Assembly: GCF_004010195.1 (NCBI RefSeq)
Contig: NC_057752.1
Span: 2,645,004-2,709,003 of the forward strand
Length of the DNA stretch: 64,000 nucleotides
From: Chiloscyllium plagiosum
Lineage: Eukaryota
Direction: 5' to 3'
Below are positions 2,919-60,051 of the stretch, in pieces. The position numbers were made by a program, and so were the translations under genes. The notes beneath the pieces are model-generated. The model made no database searches, was not told the origin of the DNA, and was given only the letters and a program-made list of their open reading frames with translations. Position 1 is the first letter of the stretch; each line of letters begins with the position of its first letter.

Positions 2919-3424
2919 TAACTGTCTGAGCAAAGACGTTTTTCCTCATCTCACTCCTAGCTCTTGTAATGCTTTTGTAAAGCATCTTGAGGTAGATTTA
3001 CAACATTAAAGGGTCTTGATGAATACAAGTTGCTATCTTGATGATGCTGCCCTGATAGCATTATCCCATGAGCCTTTGCCTTCTAGCAAACGAAAATGAT
3101 TACTGTTACTCATGTTTCTTTCTTTGATTGTGTGATGGTCTTTCTGGGTGAGGTTGTATTTTAGGTACACTATAAGCACACATTACTATCAGTCATGTTC
3201 TATCTGTTCCACTAAGTGGTGGAATGAGACCTATCTTGGTCTATTATTGTCCCTGGTGTGGAGAGAAGTGCGTCTGCATGCAATCTTAAACTCTGCTCAC
3301 CATGCACTGCCTCAAATTGTTCGTGGCCCTGAATATGGGGGTTGGACCCTGTTTGGATCAGGTAGGCCTGAGGCCTGATCAAAATTATGCCAGAGGATAA
3401 GGTCAGCAGCAACCCTCGATAACA

Positions 3425-4445
3425 TGAAGAATGTGGTTGAATGTCAAGTTACCCATGTTGGTCACAAAAACAGGATCTGAATGGGGATAGTTGGGGAAAT
3501 GCAATGAGACCTGGGTTTCCTCGTACACCAGTCACTGAAAGTAAGCATTACAGATGTAACAGGCAGTGAAGAAGGCAAATAGTATGTTGGTCTTCATAGC
3601 GAGAGGATTTGAGTACAGGAGCAGGGATGTCTTGCTGCAATTGTACAGGGCCTTGGTAAGCCCACACCTGAAGTATTGTGTGCAGTTTTGGTCTCCTTAT
3701 CTGAGGAAGGATGTTCTGGTAATGGAGGGAGTGCAGCAAAGGTTTACCAGACTGATTCCTGGAATGAGAGAAAGCGATGACTGCAGATGCTGGAGATCAG
3801 AGTTGAAAAGTGTGGCATTGGAAAAGCACAGCAGGTCAGACAGCATCCAAGGAGCAGGAGAGTCGGTGTTTCAGGCATAAGCCATTCATCAGGACATTCC
3901 TGATGAAGGGTTTATGCCTGAAACACCACCTCTCCTGCACTTCGGATGCTACCTGACCTGCTGTGCTTTTCCAGCGCCACAATTGTCAACACTGATACCT
4001 GGGATGGCAGGGCTAACCCATGAAGAGAGACTGGATCAGTTCAGACTGTCCTCGCTGGAGTTTCAAAGAATGAGGGGGCATCTCAAAGAAACTGATAAAG
4101 TTCTAACAGGATTAGACAGGGTAAACAAAGAAAGGATGCTCCCAATGTCTGGGGAGTCCACAACCAGGATTCACAGTTTAGGGTAGGCCATTTGGGACTG
4201 AGATGAGAAGAAATGTCTTCACCCAGAGAGTGGGGAGCCTGTGGAATTCTGTGTCACAGAATGTGGTTGAGGCTAAAACATTGAATGATTTCAAGAAGGA
4301 GTTAGATATAGTTCTTGGGAATAAAGGGATCAAAGGGAATGAGGAGAAAGCTGGAAAAGGGGACTAAATTGAATGATCCGATTGAATAGCGGAGCAGGTT
4401 TGAAGGGCCGAATAGTCTATTCCTGCTCCTATTTTCTATGTTTTT
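3425..4445 (+). mobile_element. Older CR1 LINE 3' fragment, interrupted by a PLE-derived hairpin
   Basis: KKANSML...LYRALVSPHLKYCVQFWSPYLRKD; 3' tail cctgctcctattttctatg. Confidence 0.88.
3767..3990. mobile_element. Penelope-terminus-derived fold-back element (family A)
   Basis: Long inverted repeat centred near 3895; flanked by actgattcctggaatg (3751-3766) and actgatacctgggatg (3991-4006). Confidence 0.85.
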
Positions 4446-7734: not shown

Positions 7735-8460
7735 GTGATAGAACATTACAGCGGAGTACAGTCCCTTGATGTTGCGCTAACCTGTGGAACCATCTGCAGC
7801 CTATCTAACCTACACTCTTCCATTTTCATCAATATGTCTATCCAATGACCATTTAAATGCCCTTAAAATTGGTGAGTCAAGATTAGAGTGGTGCTGGAAA
7901 AGCATAGCAGGTCAGACAGCATCCGAGGAGCAAGAAAAGCAATGTTTTGGGCAAAAGACCCTCGTCAGGAATCATCAGGATTCCTGCTGAAGGGCTTTCG
8001 CCCGAAACGTCGATTTTCCTGCTCCTCAGATGCTGCCTGACTTGTTGTGCTTTTCCAGCACCACTCTAATCTTGACTCCAATCTCCAGCATCTGCAGTAC
8101 CCACTTCTGCCTTTAAGTTGGTGAGTCTACTACTGCCGCAGGCAAGCCTTTCCACTCCCATACTACTTTGAGTAAAGAAACTACCTCGGATATCTGTCCT
8201 ATATCTTTCATCCCTCAATTTAAAGCTATGTTCCCTCGTGCTAGCCATCACCCTCAAGGAAAAAGGCTCTCATTATCCACCCTGTGTAACCCTCTGATTA
8301 TTTTATATGTCTCAGTTAAGTCACCTCTCAACCTTCTCTCTAACGAAAACAGCCTCAAGTTCCTCAGCCTTTTCTCGTAAGACCTTCCCTCCATACCAGG
8401 CAACGTCCTCGTAAATCTCTGAACCCTTTCCACAAAGCTTCCACACCTTCCCATAATATG
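7735..8460 (-). mobile_element. CR1 3' fragment (second family), interrupted by a PLE hairpin
   Basis: VQRFTRTLPGMEGRSY...RLRGDLTETYKIIRG on minus strand. Confidence 0.85.
7879..8109. mobile_element. Penelope-terminus-derived fold-back element (family A)
   Basis: Inverted arms around 7975; flanking duplication ccttaaaattggtgagtc (7861-7878) / cctttaagttggtgagtc (8110-8127). Confidence 0.85.
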
Positions 8461-22990: not shown

Positions 22991-23147
22991 GTTAGCTTTC
23001 GATCAAAGGAGCCAGAGTTTCCAGTGACTTAAAGTTGCCCTTTGTGGTGAGGGTTGCATAGTCCAGTGTTACTGTAGGTGTTGCTTGATATACTGTCACT
23101 GTCGTGAGAGTTCCTTTGTATAGGCTACTATAGGAGGACTGACATGG

Positions 23148-23600
23148 TGCAGTGTTTCTACAGTATAAGTTATGTGGTACCATTTCAGTACATTGGGATT
23201 TATGGTACAGTATCATCACAGCATGAGTGACATGGTATTCATCAGGAGTTGGATGGTGCACATTATCACTACAGTGTGAGTTAGATGGTATAGTCTCGGA
23301 CTGTGGGAATTATGTCAGACAGTGTCAGTACAGTGGCCATTATGTGGTACTGTGTTAGTACTATGAAGGTTATGTGGTGCTGTGTCAGTACAGGGGAAAT
23401 TATGTGGTAGTGTTGCTACAGTGGGAATTAGGTGCGACAGCATCACTACAGTGGGGTTACATGGTACAGTATCAGAACATCAGAAGTTACATGGTACTGT
23501 GTTAGTACCACCGGGTTTATGTGGAGCAATGTCAATACAGGGATAGTTATGTGGTCCAGGATCTGAACAGTGGGAGTTATGTGGTATAGTATGGTATACT
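23148..23600. repeat. Degenerate ~30-bp minisatellite (~15 units)
   Basis: Consensus about cagtgggagttatgtggtacagtgtcagta, repeated with a 28-30 bp period. Confidence 0.85.
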
Positions 23601-24028: not shown

Positions 24029-25458
24029 GTGGCTGTCTCAGGGTACAGCGTCACTTTGATGCCTGTCTCAGGGCATTGTGGTGACTCCCCCAGCTACTTG
24101 GACTGTACATCCTCGCACCCTGTTTCCTGTAAAGAATCCATTCCATCCTCCCAATTCCTTATCTCCATCGCATCTGTTCTGATGACGCCAACTTCGACAA
24201 GGGAGCTCTGAAATGTCCACCTTATTCCTCAACCGAGGATTCTCCAGCACCATTGTCGACAAAGCCCTCAACCGGGTCCGATCCATGTCTGTACTTCGGC
24301 TCTCACTCCCCCTCTTCCTTCCTCCTTGTCCTTACTTACCATCCCACCAGCATCTGTATCCAGAGGATCATGAGCAGCCATTTCTGCCAGATGCCAGCAA
24401 GATGCTACCACCAGACACATAGTCCCCTCCCTCCCATGTCCACCTTTCACAGGGACCGTTCACTCTGGGGCATCCTGGTCTACTCTTTCTTCACTCCCAA
24501 CATCCCTCCACAATCCCACGGCACCTTCCCCTGCAATCGCTCAAGGTGCAACACTTGCCCATTTACCTCCTCCCTCCTCCGTATCCAAGGGCCCAAACAC
24601 ACGTTTCAGGTGAAGCAGCACTTTATCTGCATTTTCCACAATCTGGTCTATTGCATTCGCTGATCACAATGTGGTCTTCTCTGCGTTGGGGAATGAAACG
24701 TCGACTGTGTGACCATTTCGCAGAACATCTACGTTCTGCCTGCAAAAAGACCCTGAGCCTCCAGTTGCCTGTTACTTTAACATACCACCCTATTCCCTGG
24801 TCAACATCTCCTGTCCCAGGTTTGCAGCAGTATTCCAGCGAATCTCAGTGCAAGCTGGGAAACCAACACCTCATTGTCTGCTTGGGGACCCTGCAAACCT
24901 CCGGATTCAATACTGTGTTCAACAACTTTAGGGCCTGAACTCCCCCCATGACCAAGTCCTCATACCACACACACCAGGCCTCGCTATCACACAGTCTGCT
25001 ATTACATACAATCCATTGTTAGCCACTAACAGTTTCCATTAACAACTATTCACCCTCTCAGCCAGATCGTTATCCACTCCTTTGTCTGTCCAGCTGTTCT
25101 CTCTCTTTGGGCTCTTTCCCTATCTATCATTTACTCCTTGCCCCTCCTCCACCATATCTTCTGCATATAAACCAACGTTTTCTGAGCTACCATCAGTTCA
25201 GATGAAGGGTCACTGCACCCGAAACATTAACTTTGATTTCTTTTCACAGGTGCTGCCCAACTTGTAGAGCTTTTCCGGCAACTTCTGTTTTTGTACAGTG
25301 TCATTGTGATGGTTGCCTCAGGGTACACTGTCACTGTAGTGACTGTCTCAGATTACAGTGTCATTCCGCCTGTCTCACAGTACTGCATCACTCTGATGCC
25401 TGTCTCAGGGTATAGTGTTACTGTGGTGACTGCCTCATGGTCCAGTGTCACTGTGACC
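24029..25458. repeat. Second ~29-30-bp minisatellite, split by a Penelope insertion (units at 24029-24087 and ~25292-25458)
   Basis: Unit about tgtctcagggtacagtgtcactgtggtgac on both sides of the PLE. Confidence 0.75.
24088..25292 (+). mobile_element. Penelope-like element (family C), 5'-truncated: RT thumb plus GIY-YIG endonuclease plus 3' terminus
   Basis: YLDCTSSHPVSCKESIP, GTFPCNRSRCNTC...FHNLVYCIR, KRRLCDHFAEHL; terminal hammerhead-like motif at ~25196-25241. Confidence 0.88.
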
Positions 25459-26296
25459 ATGTTGTTTGATGAGTATGTATTATCCATTTCAGGTGTTTTT
25501 GCAATCTGTGTGTTCTGGTCTAATTGTTGCTCATCTTCAAGGATATATGAAATAGATCAACATGTTTTTGTGCTCGAATCACTTTGCTTGGTCTGTGCTG
25601 GAACATAAACACACCTTGAAGCTTTAGGTGACTTTGAGAGGCCAATCAACTATCACTTCCTTTGCTGATTCTTGCCATTCAGTTTCCTCAATTGCAAAGA
25701 TATTCCTGTACGTTTCTTGCTGTGTAGCTCAAGTGTCCTCGTACTTGACAGCTGTGCAGGTCCAGTGCAGGTATGCCCAGGCTATTTGACTGTGGGGTGA
25801 ACCTGTTCAGATGCTCATTTGCCACTTGCACTGCCTAGTGGCAATAGGGGAGGGCTGTTGAGGACAGGGGCTTCTCTGGACAATGATCAACTGCAGCAAC
25901 CCCAGGTGTGGAGTTTCCTCACCTTCGTCTTAATGACAGACAGAGACCGGTTTCAGTTCTGAAGCTACCACAGAAAGATGCAGGTGAGATTAAATTCATG
26001 AGATTACGTCTTTTTACTTTTGTCATGTTTTCTTCTTGTTCAATGAGACGGAATATTGGGGTCCTCAAAATGTCTTTTGGCCATTCTATCTGGCATGCAA
26101 CTCTTAATCACTTCTGATGTGCCTTTGTGTCCAAGTCCTTTCATCACTTCTGCAGGGATTCCATCCAATCCTAGCAGTTCTTGAAGAAATAGATTCTGCT
26201 GAAGTTTACCATTTAAGATAATTGCGTGAGGCATTCTTGTGATGTTCCTCTGTTCATTATCTTGGCGAAGGTGTTATCGGCTCTATTCAAGTCACA

Positions 26297-28810
26297 CGCT
26301 TGGTTAGAGACAAAAAAACTGCAGATGCTGGAACCAAAGTAGACAGGCAGGAGGGTGGAAGAACACAGCAAGCCAGGCAACATCAGGAGGTAGGCGAAAG
26401 TGAGGACCGCAAATGCTGGAATTAGAGGCGAGAGTGTGGTACTGGAAAAGCGCAGTAGGTCAGGCAGCATCCGAGGAGCAGGAGAGTCGATGTTTCAGGC
26501 AAAAGCCCCTCATCAGCAGGTAGAGAAGTTGACGTTTCAGGTGTAACCCTTTTTCAGGACTCAGGGTGGGTGTAGGGGCAGCTGCAGATAAAGGGGGTGG
26601 CGGGGGCAGGGTGGTGAAGTGGGGATAGGTGAAGACAGTTAGAGGGTACGACCTGGTTGATCAATGGGAGGAATGAGTCTGGTTTGTGGCAGGGAGGAGT
26701 AGAACGGAGGGGGAGGAGCTGGGAACGGAGTCGGGGGATGGGGAGGGAGGTTATTTGAAATTGAGGAACTCAATGTTGAGTCCTCCAGGCTGTAGGCTGC
26801 CCAGGCGGAAGATGAGGTGTTGTTCCTCCAATTTGTGGTTTGGTTTGTTGTGGCAATGGAGGAGGCCAAGGATGGTCATGTCCGAAAGGGAGTGGGGAGG
26901 AGAATTAAAATGGGTGGTGACTGGAAGGTCCGGTCGGCCCCTGTGGGCCTGGTTTAGATGCTCAGTGAACCGTTCCCTAAGTTTACGTTTGGTCTCCCCG
27001 ATGTGGTCTTCTCTACATTGGGGAGCACCTGATGCAGTAAACTAGGTTGGAAGAGAGGCAGGTGAACCTCTGTGTCACCTGCAAGGACTGTTTGGGGCCC
27101 GTATGGAGTTGAGGGGGGTGGTGTACCAGCAGGTTTTGCATTGTTTCCGGTTGAGGGGAAGGTACCTGGAGGTTTGGTGGTGTAAACCAAGGACTGTCGG
27201 AGGGAACAGTCCTTGTGGAAAGCAGAGAGGGATGGGGAGGGGAAGATGTTCTTGGTGGGGTAAGGATGGCAGTTTCCTTCCCTGAAGGGCATTAGTGACC
27301 CAGATGGGTTTTTCCACCAATGATACCCTCCTCAGCCTTGCCGAACTGGTTCTCACCCTGAACGGCATTTCCTTCAACTCCTCCCATTTCGTTCAAATCC
27401 AGATGGGCCCCAGCTATGCCTGCCTCTTTGTCAGATATGTCAAACAGTCCCTCTTCAGTACCTATACAGGCACTGTGCCCCAACTGTTCCGTCATTACAT
27501 CAATGACTGCATCGGTGCAGCGACTTGCACCCCGGCTGAACTAGAGCAGTTCATCGACTTCACCCACAACATCCACCACGCCCTCAAATTCACTTGGTCC
27601 ATCTCAGACACCCTCCTCTCCTTTCTTGACCTCTCCATTTCCATCTCCGGTGACAGTCTCCAGACAGACGTTTACTACAAACTCATAGACTCCCATAACT
27701 ATCTGGACTGCACATCCTCCCACCCCGTATCCTGCAAGAACTCTATCCCATTCTCCCAATTACTCCGCCTCCTCCTCATCTGCTCGGACGAGGAGACATT
27801 CCACTCCCAAGCATCACAGATGTCCACCTATTTTGAACAACATGCTTTTCCTCTCTCTGTCATCCAGACAGCCCATCACTGCACCACCTCCATTCCCCGT
27901 TCCACTGCTCTGAACTTCCCACCTCCCAAACGCAATAAAAGCAGTCTCCCCTTGTCCTCACCTACCACCCCACCATTCTCTGCATTCAACGCATCATCCT
28001 TAAACACTGCTACCAACTCCAACTAGACCCCACCGCCAAGAACATCTTCCCTTCCCCACCCCACCGCCAAGAACATCTTCCCTTCCCCACCCCACTCTGC
28101 CTTCCGCAAGGACCATTCCCTTCCACAATCCTTGGTTTGCGCCACTCTCCCCACCAACATCTCCCGAACCCCCAGGTACACCATCCCCCTCACCTCCATC
28201 CAGGGCTCCAAACAGTCCTTGCAGGTGAGACAGAGGTTCACCTGCCTCTCTTCCAACCTAGTTTACTGCAACAGGTGTTCCCGATGTGGTCTTCTCTGCA
28301 TCAGGGAGACCAAACGTAAACTTAGGGAACGGTTCACTGAGCATCTAAACCAGGCCCACAGGGGCCGACCGGACTTCCCAGTCACCGCCCATTTTAATTC
28401 CCCTTTCCACTCCCTTTCCGACAAGACCATCCTTGGCCTCCTCCATTGCCAAAATGAACCAAACTGCAAGTTGGAGGAACAGCACCTCACCTTCCACCTG
28501 GACAGCCTACAGCCTGGAGGACTCAACATTGAGTTCCCCAATTTTAAATAACCTCCCTTTCCAACCCCCTCCCCCTCCATTCCACTCTTCCCTGCCACAA
28601 ACCAGATTCATTCCTCCCATTGACCAACCAGGTCGTACCCTCTACCTGTCTTCACCTATCCCCACTTCACCACCCTGCCCCCCACACCCCCTTTATCTGC
28701 AGCTCCCCCCACACCCACGCCCAGTCCTGAAGAAGGGTTACACCCAAAACGTCGACTTCCCTACCTCCTAATGCTGCCTGGCTTGCTGGGTTCTTCCAGC
28801 CTCCTGCCTG
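26297..28810. mobile_element. Penelope-like element (family B): inverted 3' copy (~26306-27258, minus) head-to-head with a sense RT+GIY-YIG copy (~27320-28810, plus)
   Basis: ORF 27295-28026 (MGPSYACLF, RHYINDC, FLDLSI, YLDCTSSHP) and ORF 28132-28551 (NLVYCNRCSRCGLLCIRETKRKLRERFTEH). Whole unit flanked by tctattcaagtcaca (26282-26296, 28811-28825). Confidence 0.92.
26394..26510 (-). mobile_element. Single-arm family A PLE-terminus insertion nested in the family B terminus
   Basis: Duplication catcaggaggtag (26381-26393) / catcagcaggtag (26511-26523). Confidence 0.8.
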
Positions 28811-30806
28811 TCTATTCAAGTCACAGTCGGAATTGGCATATGCACCCATTGTTAATTTATGCCTGTGCCTTCAGCTGTCTCAACCCTCACTCTCTGGAAT
28901 TCCTTCTCTGCCTCTCTCGTTTGCACAGTATTTATTCCTCAATCACTGTAAAAAAAGATTGTCTGGCCGCTATTATTTTCCCGTTTGTGGAAGTTTGCCA
29001 TGCACAAGTTGGCTGCCGTGCTTCCTAATTAACTAACACATCAGTCACAACACATCAAAAAGTACTAAATTGTCTATAAAATGTTTTGGGGCCATCCTGA
29101 TATTGTGAAAGGCACTATATAAACACAAGTCTTGCATTCCTTAAGATGTTTGTTAAAACGGAACATCTCTGACCAAGCTTTTTGTTACCTGTCTTAATGT
29201 CTCCTTACATGATTCTAATATTGTCCAGCAGCAGTCCCTGAGAAATGATAATGGTGCTTTTAAACTGCACATTGTTTGCCAATATTACAAATTGCCAGGA
29301 AAGCACAGATGAGGAGAAGGGGGTCATTGAATACTGCACTGGGGTTTAATACTCTTGCCTTTGCACTTTTGCGAGGTTTAATCCAGCCAAGATCCATCGT
29401 GAGAGCGTTTCCTGTTTGAGTGGGTCTATTTTTAAAAGGGATTTGACTGTCTCAACCAACTTCCTGCTGAGATTGGCTTCATTTTTCAGGCTGAGGCTTT
29501 AGCTCCTACTCCTGTGGTCCAGGAGATGTTGGGAAACGCCCATTAGCAGTGTTGAAAGAAGAGCAGGTAGCCATTTTGTGCAGAGCAAGATCCCACAGCA
29601 TTCTGGTCAACATGTCTCCCTCAAGCCTACACCCACCGAAAGGCAGTCTTTCCACATCTTCAGTACTGTTTGGGGAGGGGGAGTGCATTTTGAGTTAGGA
29701 TAAGTGTTTGCCCACACAACAACAGTCACTTTACCTAAATAGAAGTCGTAGTTCAATATGCCTTAAGCCACTTTGACATGTTATATCACTGGCACTGTTA
29801 GAAATTTGGTTGTCACAATTTGGCAACTGATTTTGAGATATCGCCCCATTCTGGAAGTTTACATCCCCCGCTGTTTGCATAAAGCCTGAGGGCCTGACTA
29901 GCCTCAAATCAGGCAACAGTTGCCACTATTTCTCCATTGTTGGGAAACCAGAGTTGTACACCCAGTTTTTCTGATGTACCTGGTGGGCCACTGTCTTTGT
30001 ACTGACACTCTCAAAGTCCAGTTTCTGCAGCTGATCTTCCGAGGCCCCAGAAGCAACATGCTCACCATTCTGTTGTTGGGCCTATCCAGACTAAATTGGT
30101 CATGGCATTTTTGTATTGCTGATTTTGGGCTGTAGTTTCATAAGCACAAGGAAAACCCTCTGATTTTGGCTTTGTCTCTTGTTGAGACGCAGCATCAACC
30201 TTTGACTGATAATGCTCTTGGGACCTTTGGTGAAGCTAAGAGTGCTGCTTAAATGCAAACAATTTCTTCCATCTCAGCAAGGCCATCTCATTGGTCACAA
30301 GTATGATCAGACCATTTGACCATGACAGAAGAAAATAGTGTCTTCACTAGATGAAACCACCAGCACTATGTTTGTGTAATCAAAACTCAAAGCCAGCTGA
30401 TTTTCTTCAACTTATCCTGTCATCATCACTGATTAAATGCAAAGCCTCTTGAACTGCATGGCTTAATTTTACATTGGGTGTCCTTTCACCTATTGAGCCA
30501 TTATTGGAGCTCATGGTGGATGTAAAACATTGGTTTACAAACAAAAACAAAACACAGGAATGTTCCTAAGGATGAGAGACCAGTTACAAGGAAAGATTGA
30601 CAGAATTGAGACTGATTGTAGAAACTGATTGTAAGGATGGCTTGAGAGGGAGAGTTGATCCGTATCCTGAAGGATCAGACAAAATGCATCAGGAGAAACT
30701 GTCTTCGTTAGTGGAAGGATTGAGAATGAGGGGACACAGATTTAAGTTGATAGGCAAAATAAACAGAAATGATGACATGAGGAACAACTTATTTAGACAG
30801 CAAGTG

Positions 30807-30979
30807 GAGAAAGTGAGGACTGCAGATGCTGGAGATCAGAACTGAAAATGTGTTGCTGGAAAAGCGCAGCAGGTCAGGCAGCATCCAAGGAGCAGGAGAA
30901 TTGACGTTTCGGGCATGAGCCCTTCTTCAGGAATGGCTCATTCCTGAAGAAGGGCTCATGCCCGAAACGTCGATTCTCC
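30807..30979. mobile_element. PLE-derived fold-back element (family A) inserted in an old CR1 3' end (~30550-31190)
   Basis: Perfect 13-bp duplication tagacagcaagtg (30794-30806, 30980-30992). Confidence 0.88.
30944..30971 (+). ncRNA. Minimal hammerhead-ribozyme-like core (PLE type), with an identical core on the minus strand at 30903-30930
   Basis: CTGAAGA-A-GGGC-TCAT-GCCC-GAAA-C-GTC; palindromic ACGT replaces helix III; stem I is weak in this copy. Confidence 0.62.
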
Positions 30980-31611
30980 TAGACAGCAAGTGATCAGGAT
31001 CTGGAATGCACTGCTTGAAAATGTGGGGGAGCGAGATTCAATTGAGGCTTTCAAAAGGGATTCAGTTTACGATCTGAAAAGAACACCGTTTGCAGGGCTG
31101 AGGGGAATGGTGGGGAGTAGATCTGAGTTGCTTTTGCAATGAGCTGACATGGACACGACGAATCAAAGGCTTTCTCCTGTGTTGTAAGTTTATCTTATGA
31201 TTCCATGCATGTATTACTTCATATTCAAAAATTTGTAGCTCTATTACTAGGGGCAACCTCATGTCATCAACTCTCCAGGATTGCCCTGATGTTTCCTGGT
31301 ATTGAAAATTATTGTCCTGGAAATTGCTGCGAGCAAATCCTGGGATGGAAAGACAGAACAATTTGGTCTCTCTGGTGTAACCATGTCTTTGATGCTGGGG
31401 GCATGGGTATGAAACGAAAGGCTTTTTGAGTGGGTGGGGTAGTTGGGAGGTGGGAGAGCATGTATTGAGACTTGCAGGAATGCGTCCATTGGTGACCCTG
31501 TGGGAAATGCCAAGCAAAGGTACAGCTTGAAAGGTTAAGGATACTTAGTAACTAGTAGCTTAATGTGATCCTTACTTCCACCCATGAAAAGAAAGAACAG
31601 AATAGATGAGC

Positions 31612-32076
31612 ATAGAGTCATAGAGATGTACAGCACGGAAACAGATCCTTTGGTCCAACCCGTCCATGCCGACCAGATATCCCAAACCCATTCTAGTCTC
31701 ACCTGCCAGCACCCGGCCCATATCCCTCCAAACCCTTCCTATTCATATACCCATCCAAATGTCTTTTAAATGTTGCAATTGTACCAGCCTCCACACTTCC
31801 TCTGGCAGCTCATTCCATACACATACTACCCTCTGTGTGAAAATAGTTGCCCCTTAGGTCCCTTTTATATCTTTTGCCTCTCACCCTAAACCTATGCCCT
31901 CTAGTTCTGGACTCACCCACCCCAGGGAAAATACTTTGTCTATTTATCCTATCTATGCCCCTTATAATTTTGTAAACCTCTATAAGGTCACCTCTCAGCC
32001 TCCGACGCTCCAGGGAAAACAGCCCCAGCCTGTTCAGCCTCTCCCTATAGCTCAAATCCTCCAACCCTGGCAACAT
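31612..32076 (-). mobile_element. Young CR1 (HER1-like) 3' fragment
   Basis: LPGLEDLSYRERLNRLGLFSLERRRLRGDLIEVYK; atagagtcatagagatgtac tail. Confidence 0.9.
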
Positions 32077-32609
32077 GATAAGAGGAGCATGACATTAGGA
32101 ACTCGCGTTGAGAGGATTATCAAAGTCTTGAAATCCTGACTTTGTTTCAGTGCATGGTGTTATAATCCAGAAAGCTAGGTGGTGAAGGATCCAACTGGAC
32201 CAATCCTTACACACTTTTTTATTAGCATTTATTTACAGAGATGCACATTACAGACATATGCTTCCTAATCTAACAAAATCTCTGAGATTTGACAGCCATG
32301 TCAAGACCTGTGGCTGTTTCTCTCCTGGAGATTCTCTCTGACTTGGTTGCGTATTGCTCATTTTTATTTCAAGTTTTCTGCATTTGTAGAATTTTGCCTT
32401 TGCAACTGGTGTTTGTTGAGGAATCTGCATTGATTAGGAGAACTCCTTGATTCTGAATAGTGCCATATTCTTGAAACAATAAGATCCTGAGGGGACTTGA
32501 CAGGGCAAATGCTGAGAGGACTTTTCTCCTTGTGAGAGAGACCAGAATGAGGTTGCACAGTTTGAAAATAAGGGGCCTTCCATTTAAAATGGAGAGGAGT
32601 ATGATCAAT

Positions 32610-32756
32610 AGTCAAAAAATGTGGTGCTGGAAAAGCTCAGCCAGTCAGGCAGCATCTGAGGAGCCGGTTGAATCGACGTTTCGGCCATAAGCTCTTTATC
32701 AGAAATGTGGAGGGGGCAGGTGACTAAGAGATAAGTAGAGGGGTGGGGAGCTGGGA
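32610..32756 (-). mobile_element. Single-arm family A PLE terminus
   Basis: gtggtgctggaaaagctcagccagtcaggcagcatc...gacgtttcggccataagctctttatcag, followed by purine-rich PLE 3' sequence. Confidence 0.75.
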
Positions 32757-33319
32757 TCATCATACAGCACGGAAACAGACCCTTCGGTCCAATTTGTCCA
32801 TGCTGACCAGGCATCCCAACTTGACCTTGTCCCATTTGCCAGCATTTGGCCCATATCCCTCTAAACCCTTCCTATTCATGCTTTTTAAATATTGAAATTG
32901 TGCTCTGTTGAATTCTTGTTCCGAAAGACCAGTGGAGGCTGAGTTAGAAAAATTTTTATTTAGTGAAACTATTGAGGGTTATGGGGCAGAGAGGATGTGA
33001 AAATGAGACCTTGATCTTATTGAATGGTGGAGCAGGTTTGAGGGGCCTCCTCCTATTTCCTGACAGTTAGACAGAGCCTTGGTTTTAATGTTTCAAATCA
33101 GGAAATAAACAGTATCTCTGGAAGTGCAGCATTCCCTCAGGATTGCACTGGGAGTGATAGCCTAAATGTTTATCCTAAAGTGGGGCTTGAACCCACAGCC
33201 TTTTTAATTCCAATGTAAGCACACTTACCCACTGAGCCACAGCTAACACAATGGGAGTAGAGGAAAGAGTGATTTGAAGAGGGATGGAGACATTAATGTG
33301 AACTCTATCCCAGGAACAT

Positions 33320-33900
33320 ATTTGAGCAAGGTGGTGATGTTGAACCTGTACAAGATCCTTGTTAGACCTCAGCTGGAGTATTATGAACAGTAGTCAGTGC
33401 CACATTATAGGAAAGATGTGAACGTTCATTGGAGAGAGTGCAGAAGCAATTTACACAAATGGTTCCAGGGATGAGAAACTTCAGTTATGAGGATTGATTG
33501 AAGAAATTGGGACTGTTCTGCTTGGAGAGAAGATGGCCGAGAGGGAGATCTGATGGAGGGTTTCAACATCATGAGGGGACACTGGACAGAGTAGATCGGG
33601 GGAAGCTGTTCCCACATGTAAATTGAACAAGAATGAAAGGGGCATGGATTTAAAGTGATGAAGCAAGGGTGATGTGAGGAAAAACATTTTCACCCAGCGA
33701 GTAGTTAGGGTCTGGAATGCACTGCCTGGGAATGTGGGGGAGGCAGGTTCAGTTGAGATATTCAAGGGCAGCATTGGATGGTTATTTGGATAGAATGGTG
33801 TGCAGGGTAAAGGCACGAGATTGGCAGTGGGGATAGAACCAGTGCAGACATGATGGGCTGAATGACTTCCTTATGCATTTTAACAGTTCTGTGATTCTGA
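33320..33900 (+). mobile_element. Old CR1 3' fragment
   Basis: LYKILVRPQLEYY-like sequence, cacccagcgagtagttagggtctggaatgcactgcc, tail ttctgtgattct. Confidence 0.8.
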
Positions 33901-34621
33901 TCATTTGATTTGAAGATATTACCATTTACAGTTGTTAATCAGCAGTGGGGAGATGTCAGCAGGCAGATTTGTGGTAAAATAGCTCTTCCTCAGGGATGCC
34001 CCAATGCTGAGCCTCAGACCTGTCAACAGTATTGCGTGAGGCAGATCAATTGCTGTGCTTCAAAACTGATCAGTTGAGACAGCCAGTGGAGAGGTAACCT
34101 CGTAATTGAGTTTCATTAATGAAAGTTCAATGGACCTCATGGAGGCCTTTACGGTTATGAAGGAGTTTAGTCAGTTGGGTGTAGAGTCCAAAACTTGAGG
34201 CTAGAAATGTAAGATAATCACTCCTAAATTCAGTAGTGTGTTCAGCAGATACGTTTTCACTCAGCTGGGAGTGGTGAGAATATGGGAGGCAAACAGAGAT
34301 CCTTTTCAGGGGAAGTTGGATAACTGCATGAAGAGCTGGGAACAGAGAGGGAATTTTGGGGGGGAAAGGCTTGAGTGAAGCATAAGCACTGGTATGGGGC
34401 AGGTAGGCTGAATGGTCTGTCTCTGTGCTGTATGTTTGATGCAAGCCAGCGAAATATGTAATCAATGATAAATGTTGGAAGGATCAAACTGGACTGGAAA
34501 TCCTTTTCTTGAGAGCTGGCTTTTTCATAGAATTCAGTATTTCATATGTCTACCTCTGACCTGCAACTTCAGTATCCCAGAAGTCACTTTTAAAAATAAA
34601 ATGTAACCTATTTTTCTAAAT

Positions 34622-34722
34622 AACCTGTACAGAGATGTTATTACACACTTCTAAAACAGGTCAGATTTGAATCTGGGCCTCCAAGCCCAGGGGTAGGGAC
34701 GCTGCCACTGTGTCCTAAGAGG
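34622..34722 (-). mobile_element. Short tRNA-like SINE head (related copy ~39700-39790, plus)
   Basis: Reverse strand gacacagtggcagcgtccctacc...ttcaaatc resembles ggcacagagctagaatccctacctctg...ttcgggtcccac at 39711. Confidence 0.5.
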
Positions 34723-35073
34723 ATCCCCAGTGCCTTTTTTTTTAAATTCCCCCACACTGCCACTGCACCCAGTCTATCTCTTTATAAGTGCTCTGGGTGC
34801 TTAATTAACAATGACCTTAACAATATAATTGGCAGACCATTAATGATTGTCAATCATTAATCCTAGGTGTAATGTTCCAAATCCTAGGTATAATGTTAGC
34901 TGGCATCTCCAATCTCAGTGTCCAACTTTATCTCACCGAGATTGCTATCTCTGCCTGTGTTATCTGCCCCTACTCCTGGCTGGGAGCTTGCCACCTGAAC
35001 TCGAAAGTAGGCAGGATTTTCTCTCACTTTGACTTCCAGCCGTTAATGGAATTGGATTTTGTTTTTTTCCCAG

Positions 35074-35240
35074 CAGCCCTATGCCCCACCCGCCCAGCAG
35101 ATGGCACCGCCCAGTCCCAGCACCAACAGCAGCAGTAACAGCAGTAGCGTTGGAGGAGAGCAACTGAGTAAAACCAACCTTTACATCCGTGGGCTTCACC
35201 CTGGTACGACTGACCAGGACCTTGTCATGCTCTGCCAACC
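35074..35240 (+). CDS. RBMS2: RBMS-family (MSSP) RNA-binding protein, internal coding exon (exon-2 equivalent; low-complexity N-terminus plus start of RRM1 with RNP2)
   Basis: Translates [56 protein letters not shown]. Preceded by pyrimidine tract ttttgtttttttcccag and followed by gtaagt at 35241. 167 nt, ends in phase 2. [10 protein letters not shown] is closer to RBMS2 than to the HPMAPPSPS of RBMS1/3 as I recall them; family is certain, paralog less so. Confidence 0.92.
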
Positions 35241-36854
35241 GTAAGTACTTTGTGTGCTTTAAATGATCCTATGGGACTGGAGGAGAGGGGAACAACATCT
35301 TTGAGACATTTTTGTGATGGCTGTGCACTGCTGAGGTATGCTGTTTGCTAACAACAATGATCACGAATTGAATAAATCTCTTGAAATGTTGCAACTTTCA
35401 AATCTTTGACCATCCTTAAAGTTCCAGTCTTCCTTTGGTTATCCACTTGCCTCTGTCACAAAGCAAGGTGTCAGCGAGAGCTCAGAAAATGAGGTGTGGA
35501 TATCATGTTGAGGGTGTGACAGATAGTATGTGATTTGGGCGGGGGGCTTTCGAGGAGATGGCCACTCTGGTACCTTGTCCTCAGAATGGCACACGTCGAG
35601 ATCTGCAGCCTATGCCACTTGTCTTTGTTTACCCCTGTGCCTGTCTGTGCAGCAGTACAGAAATGTGACAGTGTTAGCTTTGATCGTAGTGTTAGCATTG
35701 CATGATGCACAAAGGCAACTCGCAATCAAATAAAGGACCAATGGTGGGGCCTCCTATGCATGTGCTAAGGTTGCTACCTCTGCCATTGTCACAGAGCGAT
35801 CAACTGACTGTGTCCTTTGAGGTTCACACTGGAAGATCTGAGGATTGCCCAGGTTTCCTTAAATCCAAAAAGGCTGATGGTGATTTTAGCATTTCTCACT
35901 GACTAACCCAATGCAGTAGAAAGGGTTTGTGTTCCTTCGAGTTGATGAGAGGTGACCTTGAAAGTCAAATGTTGCAACTCACCAAATTCTGGGCATGAAA
36001 CAAATTGAAAGACCTTTCATGAATATTTAGCTGAGGTTGAAAAGTGGCCATGATCGCATTGAATGGCAGAGATATCTGGAAGGGCCCAATGACCTACTCT
36101 TTCTCCTCTGTTTGTCAAATAGAATGATCTTGGGATTGATGTAATTATTTTTACCTGCTTCTCCAATTTACCATCAGTGTTTTTCAGGAGGCATCTTTTG
36201 TGCTCATTAAAGTGAGCATTGCCAGTGATGAGAAATGGCATCCCATGGCACTGTCACTGCCTTTCAGGCACCCCAGTGGTGACAGCAATCACTTCCAGTC
36301 TGGTAAAGCCCAGACTGTTTCTGAGGGCACTCTCTATTTCTCTCTCTCTTTGCTGCTGTGACAACTGAAGAGACTTGGGGGCACATGCCCACTGAACGGT
36401 ATGGTTGGTAAGAGCATGGCAATCCAGCCTAAACTCAGAGTAAAAATTTAAATGAAAGGGTAAAGTATTCTGAGTGCAAATTCTTCCCAACTTGTAGAGT
36501 TTTGTGTTGAACTCCACAGGGTGGGGCAAAATCTCCAGTGGAGATGAGGGAGAGTCCTGCTGGGTCCTTCCACCACTGCCAACAAAAAGACAGTTTTAGT
36601 TGGGAGTGAGCCTTGATTCTTTTTTAACCTGCAAATTATGACTAAATGAAGTGTGTGTGGACTCAATGCAATGAAAACTGTATGCAGTTGTTCAGTGGCT
36701 CTTGTAATATTCATTAAAAAGGTGGCAGACGAAGGTGTTTCTTTGGAAAAACAGCTGCTGAAAATTATAGAATCCCCATAGTGTGGAAACAGGCCATTTG
36801 GCCCAACAAGTCCCCACAAGTGGTCTCCATTTTAGAAGGAATACTTCAGGAGCA

Positions 36855-37775
36855 GAAACATAGAAAGCAGCAGCAGGAATAGGTCATTTGTCCCTTCGAG
36901 CCTGCTCTGCCATTCAATATGACCATGATGATCATTCAACTCACTCTCCTGTTTCTACTTTCTCCCCATACCCTTTGATGTCTTCAGCACTAAGAACTAT
37001 ATCTAACTCCTCCTTGAAAGCATTCAGTGCTTTGGCCTCAACTACTTCCAGTGGCAGAGACTTCCACAGGCTCCCCACTCTCTGGGTGAAGACATTTCTC
37101 CTCGTCTCAGTCCTAAATGGCCTACCTCATATCCTTAGACTATGATCCATAGTTTTGGACTCCCCAGTCATTGGGAACATCTTTCCTGCACTTACCCTGT
37201 CTAGTCCTGTTTTATAAATGTTATTTATAAATTTTATAATTTTATAAATTTCTATGCGATCCCCCTCATTCTAAATTCCAGTGAATATAGTGCTAACTGA
37301 TCTAGTCTCTCCTCATGTGTCAGTCCTGCTATCCCAAAAATCAGTCTGGTAAACCTTTCTTGCACTCCCTCCATCACCAGGATGTCCATCCTCAGATAGT
37401 GAGACCAAAACTGCACATAATATTTCTGGTATGGTCTCACCAAGGCCCTGTACAATTGCAGCAAGTCATTCCTGTACCTGTACTCAAATCCTCTTTGAAG
37501 GCCAACATGCTGTTTGCCTTCTTCACCGCCTGCTGCACCCGCAGTGTTTATTTTCAGAAACTTGTGTACAAGGACATCTATGTTTCATTGAATCTTCCCC
37601 TCTCCCAATCTGTTCCCATTCAGGTAATAATCTGTCTTCCTGTTTTTGCTTCTAAAGTGGATAACCACACATTTATCCACATTATACTTCAACTGTCCAC
37701 TTACTCAACTTGTCCAAATCACTCTGCAGCATTCCTGACTCATCCTCACAGTTTGCCCTCTCACCCAACTTTTCC
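36855..37775 (-). mobile_element. CR1 RT C-terminus and 3' tail
   Basis: LQLYRALVRPYQKYYVQFWSHYLRMD; same family as 3425-4445 and 53412-54185. Confidence 0.88.
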
Positions 37776-39351
37776 AAGAAGTTGAAAGTTGATGGCTTGA
37801 TGTGCCCTTCCAAAGTTGAACAAGGAGGACTTCATACTTGGTGAGAATGAGCTGCCTGCACACACCATGCTCTGTTGTGGAACTGGGAGCACATTACACA
37901 GAGAAGTGTGCCTTTTGTCACTGATTAACTGACTCCAGTTTCTGGGGTAAGTTAGTGAGGACAGTGGAATGGCAAAGGCCCTGATTCTGGTCAGAGAGTT
38001 GAAGTCGACTTTCCAGGCTGGCTGCAAGGTAGATCATTTTGCAGTTTGTCGATTTGATGTCAGTTTGAAAGTCTGTGCCAAAGTTGGATTTTTGCAAATG
38101 ATTGCCCAGTCTGCAGCAGTGCCTCGTGGCCTGCTCCTCACCCACAGGATGGTGCTTCCTGATTGTTCTTTTCTCCAAGCTCATTTTTATGCCCAGCAAA
38201 CTGTAGGGACAGCCAGGGCACAGGAGGGAGTGTAAAAACCAGGAGACACAATCTCAGAAGAAGGGGTAAGCCATTTCAGACTGAGATACTGAGATCAGGA
38301 CCAGAGGTTGTGGAGGGTCAGTCATTGAGTCCATGATCGTGACTGAGATTGATAGATTTCTACATATGAAAAACATTAAGGGATTTAGGGAGAGCGTAGG
38401 AAAATGCCACTGAAGTATAAAATCAGTCACGATCTCGTTCATTGGTAGAGCAGGCAATATGTATCTCTATAAATCAATAGTTATTAAAGTGCTTAAAGAT
38501 TGGCTCCAGTTCTACCCATTACCAACTGGCTTTCTGATGTATATGACTGCACATTGTACAACTGTCAATGAGGGGTGAGATGGGCAGAGCCAAACAAGCT
38601 TTCCTTTGCTCCACATTATACAGCAATGGTTCTGAAAGGGCTAATGCTGAAGGCTGCATTAAATTACACCCAATCTGATGAAGTCATAAGGATCATTGGG
38701 CATGTGAACCCTCAAATGTAGAAGCCCAATCATTAAGAATAAATGTAAATGGGTTGCTCTGTACCACGAGGTGGCAAATACCTGGAAGAAAGATTGACAG
38801 CTCACCTAAAGATGGCAGGTAGCAACAGACAAGTTGTCAGCCTGTGATTAGTGCAAATGTGTTTTCTTTGTGTTAACAACTGTATTAAAAAGTAATTACA
38901 GGCCCCTTCTGATGATATGTTGGGAATAGCATGGCCTCACTTGACACTGAGATACATCGACCAGAAAAAGGTAGCCTGACAAAGATCATTGTGGTTTAGG
39001 CTGGCATTGGTAGGTTGCCTGGCGACAGGACCAGGCTGGGAAATGAAGCCTGCCATAGTTGAGCAGTTGGACACCGTGTGGGATAACAGGTGAAGAATGG
39101 TCATTGAAGTGGGCTATTAGAGGGCTGCTGCCATCCATACAATCCCACAACAGTCAGTACTTTAAACGCAACCGCTCCAGGACTGAATGTTCCAAACCTA
39201 GTAGGCTGCTTAAGTGGGCAACATAAAGTTTTAGGTGGCACATCTTGCAAGACCTCCTATTGGCTAGCCAAAAATTCTTCCTGGGCAATATAAGCCTAAG
39301 ACATGCTATCCAGTCACTGGTACTTGTTTCTGCTATTAGCTAATAAAGAGT

Positions 39352-39440
39352 ACAAGCAGGAGGCTGAAAGAACATAGCAAGCCAGGCAGCATCAGGAGGT
39401 GGAGAAGTTGACGTTTCGGGTGTAACCCTTCTTCAGGGCT
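39352..39440 (-). mobile_element. Single-arm family B PLE terminus with intact hammerhead-like core (39410-39436, minus)
   Basis: Reverse strand CTGAAGA-A-GGGT-TAC-ACCC-GAAA-C-GTC; matches the 28727-28810 terminus. Confidence 0.78.
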
Positions 39441-39824
39441 AATGCAGGGCAGTTAACCACAACCTAAACACAGAAATCTAAACAGGAGAAGACCATTTGG
39501 TCCATCGAGCCTGTTCCAGAATTCAAATTAGATTGTGGCAAATCTGTACTGAACTCCATCTACTTGCTGTGCTTCTCTAACCCTTAGTAACCCTGCCCAA
39601 CAAACATTTGTCCTATTCAGTTTTGAAGCTTTCAATCAAACCTCAGGCTCCATAGTCATTAATACTCAAGAGAAGACAAGCCAAGACTATGCAATTTGTA
39701 GGGCTGTTGTGGCACAGAGCTAGAATCCCTACCTCTGGGTAAGGTGACCTCAGTTCGGGTCCCACATATTTCCAGAGGTGTGGCTGTAGAGGTTGGTCAC
39801 TATAATTATATTTTAAATTTTGAA

Positions 39825-40032
39825 TAAAAGCAAAATCTGCTGGAAATCTGGAACAAAGACAATGCTGGAGAAACTCAGCAGATCTGGCAGCATCTGTGGG
39901 GAGAGAAACAGTTATGTTTCAAGTGCAGCATGAGTCCTGAAGAAGAGTTGCATCAGACGTGCAATGTTAGTTGTTTCTCTTTCGATAGATGCTGTCAGAG
40001 CTAGTGAGTTTCTCCAGCACTTTCTTTGTGTT
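39825..40032. mobile_element. Older PLE-derived fold-back element (family C-like); second copy at ~44140-44385
   Basis: gctggagaaactcagcagatctggcagcatctg...agatgctgtcagagctagtgagtttctccagc arms; right arm resembles the 25245-25292 PLE terminus. Confidence 0.72.
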
Positions 40033-40153
40033 AAATTTGCTGATGACCCACTGCTACCAAAAAACATGCAACCTGGCCTCGTACTTTAGTCCTAGTTGAA
40101 GGCATTTGAACAAATCTGTCAACTTGTTTGAATTTGACTTTAAATTCCTCGGC

Positions 40154-41323
40154 TGAGTTGAAACATGTAGTGCTGGAAAAGCTCAGCAGGCCAGGCAGCA
40201 TCCGAGGAGCAGGAGAATCGACGTTTCGGGCATAAGCCCTTCTTCAGGAATGAGGCTGGTGTGCCAAGCGGGCTGAGATAAAAGGTAGGGGTTGGGGGGG
40301 NNNNNNNNNNNNNNNNNNNNNNNNNNNNNNNNNNNNNNNNNNNNNNNNNNNNNNNNNNNNNNNNNNNNNNNNNNNNNNNNNNNNNNNNNNNNNNNNNNNN
40401 NNNNNNNNNNNNNNNNNNNNNNNNNNNNNNNNNNNNNNNNNNNNNNNNNNNNNNNNNNNNNNNNNNNNNNNNNNNNNNNNNNNNNNNNNNNNNNNNNNNN
40501 NNNNNNNNNNNNNNNNNNNNNNNNNNNNNNNNNNNNNNNNNNNNNNNNNNNNNNNNNNNNNNNNNNNNNNNNNNNNNNNNNNNNNNNNNNNNNNNNNNNN
40601 NNNNNNNNNNNNNNNNNNNNNNNNNNNNNNNNNNNNNNNNNNNNNNNNNNNNNNNNNNNNNNNNNNNNNNNNNNNNNNNNNNNNNNNNNNNNNNNNNNNN
40701 NNNNNNNNNNNNNNNNNNNNNNNNNNNNNNNNNNNNNNNNNNNNNNNNNNNNNNNNNNNNNNNNNNNNNNNNNNNNNNNNNNNNNNNNNNNNNNNNNNNN
40801 NNNNNNNNNNNNNNNNNNNNNNNNNNNNNNNNNNNNNNNNNNNNNNNNNNNNNNNNNNNNNNNNNNNNNNNNNNNNNNNNNNNNNNNNNNNNNNNNNNNN
40901 NNNNNNNNNNNNNNNNNNNNNNNNNNNNNNNNNNNNNNNNNNNNNNNNNNNNNNNNNNNNNNNNNNNNNNNNNNNNNNNNNNNNNNNNNNNNNNNNNNNN
41001 NNNNNNNNNNNNNNNNNNNNNNNNNNNNNNNNNNNNNNNNNNNNNNNNNNNNNNNNNNNNNNNNNNNNNNNNNNNNNNNNNNNNNNNNNNNNNNNNNNNN
41101 NNNNNNNNNNNNNNNNNNNNGTTGTGGGAGTCGGTCGGTTTGTAGTAAATGTCTGTGTTGAGTCGGTCGCCCGAGATAGAAATGGAGAGGTCTAGGAAGG
41201 GGAGGGAGGAGTCTGAGACGGTCCAGGTAAATTTGAGGTCGGGGTGGAAGGTGTTAGTAAAGTGGATGAACTGTTCAACCTCCTCGTGGGAGCACGAGGT
41301 AGCGCCAATACAATCATCGATGT
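40154..41323 (-). mobile_element. Penelope-like element (family A), 5'-truncated, mostly in an assembly gap
   Basis: YIDDCIGATSCSHEEVEQFIHFTNTFHPDLKFTW...FLDLSI...YYKPTDSH; 3' terminus matches family A hairpin arms, with intact core at 40220-40247; flanks attcctcggc / attccttggc. Confidence 0.88.
40301..41120. other. Assembly gap
   Basis: Run of N. Confidence 1.
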
Positions 41324-42129
41324 ATTCCTTGGCCTCTGCCTTGGTATTCGGCACTGACAAGTTAACTCCTTTAGCCCAGGGTCGTTTTTGTGTTGCAAAT
41401 CCGCCAAGTTGAACATCTCCTTTCTAAGCCGCAGTGCCCAAACTGAACACAGGAAACAAATGTGGTTTTTAGTTCAGGCAAGGCCAAAAGCTTTTGTGTG
41501 CAGAATGTCAGCTAGCCTCCTTGCTGTTGTGTTCTCTGTGGTTTGTGGGTTGCCTCCTCTGACCTGACCAGTCCTTTCTATTTGTGAATGGACTGAGAAG
41601 GAACTGAAACTGGGGTGAAAAGCTGCAAAGGGTTTTCCTGTTGAGGGTTTTCTCTTGACTTGCTCTGTCAAGCATTTACACAAAAAGTAGGAAATGGTAG
41701 GCACCACAGTTTATCAGTTGGAGGGGGATCCTCAGTTATTTTCTCTGGTTTTGGGGGCATTGAAGGGGGTGGGGTGGGGCAGAATATTACCCCAACAGCA
41801 GTGATGTCAGAAAGCACTTCCTTCCACTGAAAAAGTTTGGAATTTCTCCAATTGATAATAGTTTGGGCAAGGGGTAATAACCGTTATGAAAATCAAGGTG
41901 AGCAGAGCAAGTTCACGTGCAGGTCAGCCATGATCTCATTGAATGACAGTAAGAGGTTCAAGGGGCTGAATGGCCTGCTGCTTCAGTTCTTGTGTTCCTG
42001 AATGTGAAAGCTGCTTGCCAGAAGATAAGCAAACACCTTCAGAACACAGGAGGTTGAGGAGCAGAGCAGGTTTAGAAAAGGTTTGAGATCTGTCAACGTA
42101 CTTCTGAAAGGAATTCCCACCTTCAGGTA

Positions 42130-57257: not shown

Positions 57258-58140
57258 TGGTCCAGCATTTATAGCCTTTCCCTCATTCCCCTAGAGAAGG
57301 TAGTGGTGAGCTGCCTTCTTGAACCACTGCAGTCTGTGTGCTGTAGGTAGACCCACAATGCCCTTAGGGAGGGAATTCCAGGATTTTGACCCAGCAACAC
57401 TGAAGAAACAGTGATACATTGCCAATGTCGAGAGTGTGGTGCTGGAAAAGTACAGTGGGTCAGGCAGCATCCGCTGAGCAGGAGAATCGACGTTTCGGGC
57501 ATAAGCCCTTCATCAGAAATTAATCATTCCTGATGAAGGGCTTATGCCTGAAATGCTGATTCACCTGCTTCTTGGATGCTGCCTGATCTACTGTGCTTTT
57601 CTAGCACCACACTCTCGACTCTGATCTCCAGCATCTGCAGTCCTCACTTTCTCCTCCTTCAGGGATGTAGTGCCAACCAATTGGGCTGCATTGTACTGAA
57701 TGGTGTCGAGCTTCTTGAGTGTTGTTGGAGCTGCACTCATCCAGGCAAGTGGGGAGTAGTCCATCACACTCCTGACTTGGGCCTTCTAGATGGTGGACTG
57801 GCTTTGGGGAGTCAGGTGGTGAGTTGCTCACCACAGTATGCCTAGCCTCTGTGACCTGCTCTTGTATTCATTGTATTTATACAGCTAGTTAAGTTGTGTT
57901 TCTGGTCAATGGTAACCCCCAGGATGGTGATAGTGGATGTTTCAGTCATGGTAGTGTTGTTAAATGTCATGGGACAATGGTTAGATTGTGTTTTGTTGGT
58001 GTTGGTCATTGCCTAGCATTTGTGTGGCGCAAATGTTACTTGCTACTTGTCATGCCAAGCTTGGATATTGTCCAGGTCCCACTGCATTTGACCTTGGACT
58101 GCTTCAGTTCCTAAGGAGATGTGAATGATGCTGATCACTA
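57258..58140 (-). mobile_element. LINE 3' fragment (same family as 6785-7450), interrupted by a family A hairpin (~57427-57655)
   Basis: Reverse-complement similarity to 6800-7420; hairpin centred ~57523 with intact minus-strand core at 57489-57516. Confidence 0.82.
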
Positions 58141-59992: not shown

Positions 59993-60051
59993 GTATGGTA
60001 AAATCGTCTCCACAAAGGCCATTCTGGACAAGACAACCAACAAGTGCAAAG
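59993..60051 (+). CDS. RBMS2: RBMS-family coding exon (exon-3 equivalent; RRM1 middle)
   Basis: ttgtccttttctttgtaacag|G TAT GGT AAA ATC GTC TCC ACA AAG GCC ATT CTG GAC AAG ACA ACC AAC AAG TGC AAA G|gtagga = (P)[19 protein letters not shown](G). 59 nt; the first G completes the CC-G Pro codon of the previous exon. Not shown in this frame by the ORF track. Confidence 0.93.

Follow-up and report, generated by a model that had tools for sequence, protein, structure and literature searches.

Are the short hammerhead-like motifs that accompany Penelope-like elements (PLEs) in the window (the whole stretch of 64,000 nucleotides of Chiloscyllium plagiosum DNA analysed here) genuine ribozymes, and if so, in which state are they copied with their elements? 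We consider it very probable that they are minimal type I hammerheads located in the terminal repeats of Neptune-type PLEs, that they are copied uncut, and that their cleavage, which we predict, takes place pairwise and with the aid of protein. Judged by their sequence, they belong to a known kind, the published minimal hammerhead of PLEs, to which new members are added here. One point is unusual: roughly one genomic copy in two ends at the front edge of the fold rather than at its cut site.

Motif copies and element remnants in the window

The five motifs listed in a preliminary description can be read directly in the sequence, with the letters and coordinates given there: two of family A (30944-30971, plus strand, and 40247-40220, minus strand), two of family B (28727-28753, plus, with G12 changed to A, a CpG-type change, and 39436-39410, minus) and one of family C (25195..25232, plus, with the core at 25199-25228 and the stem I arms at 25195-25198 and 25229-25232). 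The core is perfect in three of the five, those at 25199 and 28727 bearing one change each. The copy of family B at 39410-39436, which had been called intact, is so in its core, but its stem I keeps just two of four pairs. The copy of family C, with U4 changed to A and a CpG-decayed helix III, was correctly transcribed but is a poor guide to its family: the family majority has CUGAGGA, a 5-bp stem II and a GUU site (as reconstructed by undoing CpG decay), so that the U4-to-A change, the 4-bp stem and the AUU of this copy are private changes. The three families are thus present as described, but the window also holds unlisted copies and a decayed fourth family, D, and the motif does not lie at the 3' termini, as had been stated, but 55-100 bases inward of the element 3' end.

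With a descriptor made of the core, a 4-bp stem II and a loop-less helix III, the window gives seven perfect-core matches against a mean of 0.125 in eight shuffles that keep dinucleotides, and 15 against 1.4 if one core mismatch is allowed; the two-mismatch level is uninformative, since 27 window matches then stand against 18 in shuffles. The Rfam check that had been suggested came out negative for hammerheads, with zero such matches in the window at E up to 1; the scan returned microRNA-like matches, which come from the head-to-head hairpins, and one lncRNA match.

A family C element of the Neptune type is represented at 24500..25294 (plus) by a 3' fragment with a broken Cys linker, a GIY-YIG remnant, the 3' UTR, the hammerhead and a short tail (+66; signed positions are counted from the cut site). 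A family B insertion occupies 26297..28810 (plus), where an inverted long-tail arm (26317-27161) is joined to a sense arm carrying reverse transcriptase (RT), thumb, a GIY-YIG remnant, the hammerhead and a short tail; its 15-bp target duplication (26282-26296 and 28811-28825) was recognised by eye, the scripted test having missed it. The broken open reading frame at 27286..28551 (plus), which covers the C-terminal half of the RT, the thumb and GIY-YIG, aligns with the family A protein (tblastn E 1e-71 and 1e-33); a Pfam search with the window's own broken frames gave zero matches. The hammerhead of the sense arm (28723..28757, plus) combines a 4-bp stem I with the G12-to-A change, that of the inverted arm (26531..26557, minus) has G8 changed to A, and a short family A copy (26392..26516, minus, from -28 to +98, hammerhead at 26516-26489) sits in the tail of the inverted arm. 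We rejected a tandem of a B and an A hammerhead at this place in favour of this single nested insertion.

A head-to-head family A insertion at 30807..30979 is bordered by a 13-bp target duplication (30794-30806 and 30980-30992). Its hammerheads (30930-30903, minus, and 30944-30971, plus) pair mutually in a 42-bp hairpin, and the cleavage predicted earlier after 30971 is unlikely in that copy because the motif is locked in a duplex with its own antisense arm. There follow a short family B copy (39352..39440, minus, core at 39436-39410), which begins at the stem I 5' arm (-31), the decayed and previously unlisted head-to-head pair of family D (39838..40031), and a family A element (40160..41324, minus) composed of an RT piece (41324-41121), an assembly gap, the 3' UTR, the hammerhead at 40247-40220, whose core is intact, and a short tail. 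Other head-to-head pairs of family A are found at 3768..3996, outside the range first described (5' ends at -30 and -33), at 7881..8104 (both arms begin at -32) and at 57435..57656 (-32 and -34). As far as their letters tell, the copies of the window are decaying fossils, most of which would be unable to cut.

The host type can be read from a long family A copy (L293), in which RVT_1 (E 8e-9) and GIY-YIG (E 8.5e-5) precede the motif and share its strand, and which also carries an inverted 5' arm; the B and C remnants of the window align to its protein. The motif is on the sense strand, 3' of RT and GIY-YIG, in families A, B, C, E and G. According to the text available of PMC8557442, Neptune elements are marked by a CX2-5CxxC linker between RT and the C-terminal GIY-YIG; a C-X3/4-C-X2-C linker precedes GIY-YIG in families A, B, C and E, which we assign to the Neptune type by this linker, and is absent in family G, which looks Poseidon-type. 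For family D, upstream element sequence was never seen. No 5' direct repeat with a hammerhead was found in 20 long loci and 4 more, one likely tandem junction (L324) falling inside an assembly gap. A PDB sequence search with the RT gave zero matches, and the long open frames from the genome search were discarded, being mostly assembly gaps or tandem repeat.

Unselected genome sequence (778 kb in 80 stretches) contains 71 strict matches, against 0-1 in five shuffles, which extrapolates to about 3e5 copies in this genome of 3.56 Gb. Anchoring on the tails gives 368 copies in 1.03 Mb, both arms of each pair being counted, and 222 of them reach back across the whole core.

Constant core and covarying stems

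Clustering of 514 distinct seed matches from all loci yielded 12 subfamilies (with 69 matches unclustered), which make up seven families. The catalytic core CUGANGA...GAAA...NUH is identical in the majorities of all 12, and the family majorities agree with the published consensus CUGANGAH G..C GAAA N-palindrome-N UH. The extra A after A9 that had been pointed out is indeed present, but it already figures in the published consensus and is no new trait; an unpaired base between A9 and G10.1 occurs in 70 of 71 strict matches (A in 64, U in 5, C in 1), found with a descriptor that permitted its absence, and it is A generally and U in families F and G. The majority of family C has G.U at 10.1-11.1, probably by CpG decay. 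Helix III is a palindrome without a loop, which reads ACGU in families A, B, C, F and G and AGCU in E; the majority of family D is CpG-decayed here.

Covariation of stems I and II had been set as a test of the hammerhead reading; it was run on the family consensuses, and covariation was found. Over six variable pairs and seven families, 39 of 42 cells are Watson-Crick, against a shuffle mean of 15.9, and 0 of 200,000 shuffles reach 39. When each of three deep lineages is represented by one family, 16-17 of 18 cells pair (exact P 4e-5 to 2e-4). Among ten real copies, 88% of cells are paired and covariation is 0.88 (a score depressed by two family E rows that are one column off in helix II), falling to 0.23 or less when the partners are slid. 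Helix II measures 4-6 bp across families, with compensating changes, and the first three pairs of stem I are Watson-Crick in 20 of 21 cells, family A, the most abundant, having a U.U mismatch at the third pair that is repaired in one young subfamily alone. The covarying stems, together with the core, the extra base, the G10.1-C11.1 pair, the helix III palindrome and the position in the element, match the PLE minimal type I hammerhead, as the preliminary description had proposed. A canonical type I hammerhead, which has a 6-bp helix I and a contact between loop 1 and loop 2, was rejected, helix I being 3-4 bp long here and Rfam hammerhead matches being zero.

For seven of eight single copies the predicted fold is no more stable than that of shuffles (z above -1.6), and by nearest-neighbour energies other dimers beat the double hammerhead by 5-14 kcal/mol in all three copies tested. 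This energy estimate would make the double hammerhead a non-preferred dimer if it receives no help, in line with the weak cleavage that has been published.

Where the copies begin and end

On the 3' side, the copies end at two points about 38 bases apart (near +60 and +98 in family A, near +56 and +92 in family E). Sixty-four of 67 head-to-head pairs combine one long and one short tail, as expected from two RT start sites of the sort reported in PMC11167929. Each insertion would then combine a pair of cDNAs, begun at the two tail sites and each primed on a different target strand.

On the 5' side, 6 of 277 ends fall at the cut site (-1 to +2) and 136 of 277 at -18 to -42, that is, on the stem I 5' arm, where they are densest at -28 to -37, with the mode at -32 and -31 and a rate 6.6 times that of both flanks. 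The zone was picked on this first set and tested on a second, from 20 further stretches, in which 18 of 37 ends lie in it (8-10 times the flank rate). The pooled test leaves out copies affected by gaps or edges (16 of 344 and 5 of 45) and families D and F, for which the upstream reference is absent, and its P values are overstated because both arms of each pair are counted. The peak is about 20 bases wide, the ends differ between the two arms of a pair, and the pile-up is absent in family G (2 of 11). In RNA reads of organism B, three of four opposite-strand joints are exactly at -32. It follows from these 5' ends that the templates were uncut, and that roughly every second cDNA is terminated at a landmark in front of stem I; both cDNAs of an insertion would thus run back through an uncut hammerhead, about half of them stopping at its front edge.

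The median 5' end is at -31 to -33 in long-tail and short-tail arms alike, which argues that position, not the length of the cDNA, sets the stop, and on this ground a fixed cDNA length was rejected as its cause. So was a fold-back of stem I, whose geometry occurs in 1 of 67 pairs, and so were templates defined by cleavage, the cut site being without a 5'-end peak. As to stalling of RT before the fold, on its 3' side, all that is seen is a small bump at +1 to +10. Divergence between subfamilies lies behind the apparent 5' end in 5 of 40 copies, which was corrected by extra references: the upstream flanks of these 40 non-inverted short copies are unrelated, apart from the five that continue into another long subfamily and two that fall in gaps. 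A clear target duplication of 9-17 bp is present at 14 of 228 anchors examined, so at least those short copies are primary insertions.

The front-edge stop suggests the place where the copied RNA begins, and a roadblock of protein or structure on tandem transcripts explains it equally well. Because the stop is fixed in position and family E has a poly(A) site behind the hammerhead, we have considered the idea, which we regard as rather doubtful, that the pseudo-LTR is built like a retroviral U3-R-U5, with the hammerhead as the R repeat at both RNA ends. The RNA would start at the stem I 5' arm and receive its poly(A), in family E, about 27 bases past the cut site, the R-like segment spanning -32 to +27; target-primed reverse transcription would begin in the tail, near the RNA 5' end, and run off; short copies would be integrated strong-stop cDNAs, long ones would have jumped to the 3' R, and the two R copies would be held together for the jump by the palindromic double hammerhead. 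If this were true, the 5' stop of about half of the copies would mark the start of the copied RNA. The consensus of the transcription initiator is YYANWYY. In families A1, B, C and D, the stem I 5' arm begins at the A of such a word; the word is absent at E, F and G, and it is common anyway, with 2-8 matches per 300 bases. A clear cap-derived G is absent from the 14 copy junctions examined, and linkage across the hammerhead of family A shows no drop (r2 0.29 vs 0.26). The breadth of the peak, the missing pile-up in G, the tails of A, B and C, which lack a poly(A) signal, and the more distant RNA start of the D. virilis element also tell against the idea. In the openly accessible literature we found neither the pile-up nor a strong-stop model described before.

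The poly(A) site of family E was seen in X21, one single-cell poly(A) run from a species not known to be C. plagiosum and poorly suited to showing cleaved ends, in which 1180 family E reads carry poly(A) about 27 bases past the cut site and span the uncut hammerhead. These reads belong to several subfamilies and may derive from host transcripts. Read starts and ends show no pile-up on family A or E in this library. A poly(A) signal, AATAAA or ATTAAA, is found 9-14 bases past the cut site in 41 of 44 family E copies, followed by a GU-rich stretch, and is absent from the tails of A, B and C. Family E itself is absent from the window.

Three other readings of the motifs have to be weighed. We find it hardly credible that a chance likeness to the hammerhead core was multiplied by repeat amplification. 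It is true that the excess over shuffles overstates the case, since the copies within a family do not count as independent, and that single copies are no better folded than shuffles; yet three lineages with unrelated tails have the core in common, both sides of stems I and II change together (exact P under 2e-4), and helix III, in passing from ACGU to AGCU in family E, is still palindromic. Chance similarity is refuted by the covariation result. It is also very improbable that the short copies form a family apart, a non-autonomous one of SINE-like or retrozyme type that starts at the hammerhead and is multiplied from masters of its own. Such a family would suit the size of most copies (85-130 bases), the 14 of 228 anchors with a clear target duplication, the case of D, never found with upstream element sequence, and the report that retrozymes derive from PLE termini (bioRxiv 10.64898/2026.07.22.740005, in the text available). 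It would not suit the subfamily-diagnostic bases common to short and long copies, the 5' ends spread over some 20 bases and unequal between the two arms, the unrelated upstream flanks of the non-inverted short copies (with the seven exceptions given above, 5 of 40 and 2 in gaps), or the absence of regular tandem spacing among 129 cores, whose 32 same-strand pairs within 4 kb are irregularly spaced (226-3815).

Less remote, and in our opinion still unlikely, is that the fold persists as a structural handle for RNA pairing, protein binding or template switching, cleavage being absent or incidental. The derivation of genomic copies from uncut RNA would agree with this, as would the double hammerhead not being the lowest-energy dimer and, as far as the available text of PMC11167929 goes, two observations on an anole PLE: catalytic mutants of its hammerhead left in vitro insertion unaffected, and RNA-seq ends were not found at its hammerhead site. 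However, the anole motif does cleave in the presence of protein (same source), and a handle would not need what all 12 of 12 subfamily majorities show, namely stems that vary around catalytic bases and an NUH triplet that do not. We therefore keep to minimal hammerheads that are copied uncut. In the RNA of the parent element they would likely fold in pairs only, by means of the four-base palindrome standing in place of helix III, and the predicted cut, after GUC or GUU, would occur only with the element's protein.

Comparison with known PLE hammerheads and retrozymes

Minimal hammerheads in the pseudo-LTRs of metazoan PLEs, including the fish elements Xena, Poseidon and Neptune, were described by Cervera and de la Pena (2014, PMC4209133); in the text available to us, dimers and trimers cleave at a low level and monomers not at all. 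Dimer cleavage was reported by Lunse et al. (RNA Biol), as related in the review PMC6765202. The motifs studied here have in common with those of PMC4209133 the core, the unpaired 9/10.1 base, the G10.1-C11.1 pair, the loop-less palindromic 15.2-16.2 and the short helix I, and as there, many families coexist in a genome, mostly as solo or opposite-strand copies. The searched part of its supplement has no shark or chimaera entry. The copy number is far above the counts given in that paper for coelacanth (about 4,000) and Xenopus (about 9,000), with descriptors that differ between the studies.

The closest experimental system is the Poseidon element PAc of Anolis carolinensis (Frangieh et al. 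2024, PMC11167929). According to the part of that paper at hand, its hammerhead cleaves only with the element's protein and is dispensable for in vitro insertion, and reverse transcription starts at two internal sites. As in PAc, the hammerhead here is followed, at about 55-100 bases, by two RT start sites that delimit an optional tail, and both target strands would be primed with an uncut RNA template. Unlike PAc, the families of the window are Neptune-type by their Cys linker, and in the same part of the paper neither a 5'-end pile-up at the hammerhead nor a poly(A) site behind it is described for PAc.

Animal non-LTR retrozymes also have a type I hammerhead, short units and a link to PLE termini (PMC7229834 and bioRxiv 10.64898/2026.07.22.740005, each in the text available). 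However, their hammerheads are canonical and stand in tandem repeats of about 170-400 nt, whereas ours are minimal and occur in single or head-to-head copies; retrozyme identity was rejected because helix I is short and tandem units are absent. Another likeness is with the Penelope element of Drosophila virilis, whose pseudo-LTR has, by the account available (Schostak et al. 2008, PMC2377424), an internal TATA-less promoter close upstream of the hammerhead. There, the RNA begins further upstream, at a start 46 bases before a 75-base intron that ends at helix I; a Penelope-like exon fused to short copies was not found in the upstream flanks examined here.

The motif is thus ordinary for PLEs, and what is added here is members from a large vertebrate genome, present in very great numbers, and a covariation set that is clean and includes a helix III swap. 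The role of the hammerhead in PLE transposition and the regeneration of the pseudo-LTR are called open in the available parts of PMC8557442, PMC2377424 and PMC11167929; hundreds of thousands of dated copies, a fixed 5' stop and the poly(A) site of family E make these questions testable.

Strand and state of the copies within the host gene

Two plus-strand exons of a host gene that shows the start of an RRM lie in the window, at 35074-35241 and about 59990-60050; the match to Pfam RRM_1 (E 0.13) is under the cut-off, and the gene resembles one of the RBMS family. The Penelope-like element (PLE) copies lying between these exons are intronic. Among all copies of the window, those on the host sense strand either sit within head-to-head hairpins, that is, two opposite-strand copies in one insertion (3900, 7984, 30944 and 57530), or have a mutated catalytic core (25199 and 28727); the stand-alone copies with a perfect core (20364, 39436 and 40247) are antisense to the gene. 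We think that this split, seen in few cases, may reflect selection against cutting of the pre-mRNA. The family C fragment is adjoined by degenerate 30-base tandem repeats (23145-23585 and 24033-25477). On the minus strand at 26392-26557, a short family A copy is nested in a family B tail (the sequence 3' of the predicted cut site), which leaves a pair of hammerheads separated by about 40 bases; this arrangement occurs once, and both hammerheads are mutated.

The predicted cut site and the sequence behind it

In families B, C and D the predicted cut site is the middle of a 6-base palindrome (GUCGAC, GUUAAC), because N17, the base before the cut, is complementary to position 1.1. This palindrome gives a competing, non-catalytic dimer, which might serve as an off state. 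Behind the hammerhead, the tails of families A-D share a conserved block opening with ATG (+15 to +50), preceded in C and D by a pyrimidine run and CAG resembling a splice acceptor. The block may be the ORF start of the next unit; no tandem junction that would bear this out was seen.

Family E, whose loci all lie outside the window, has a poly(A) signal, AATAAA or ATTAAA, directly 3' of the hammerhead in 41 of 44 copies (for example L201:1583-1640, and other loci of the family). In X21, a single-cell poly(A) RNA run from a species not known to be C. plagiosum, 1180 reads carry poly(A) about 27 bases past the predicted cut site; the predicted cleavage of such RNAs would remove the poly(A) tail. 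Family E copies may contribute poly(A) sites to host transcripts.

Head-to-head hairpins

The microRNA-like Rfam matches at 3844-3948, 30895-30980 and 39883-39999, all below the gathering score, are head-to-head PLE hairpins, and intronic hairpins of this kind could be a source of double-stranded RNA. In family F, a further PLE family of this genome, all 40 scored loci (L231-L260) are head-to-head pairs, an outcome that may stem from query selection, because a head-to-head pair had served as the query; near-equal in size, these pairs are akin to small hairpin elements.
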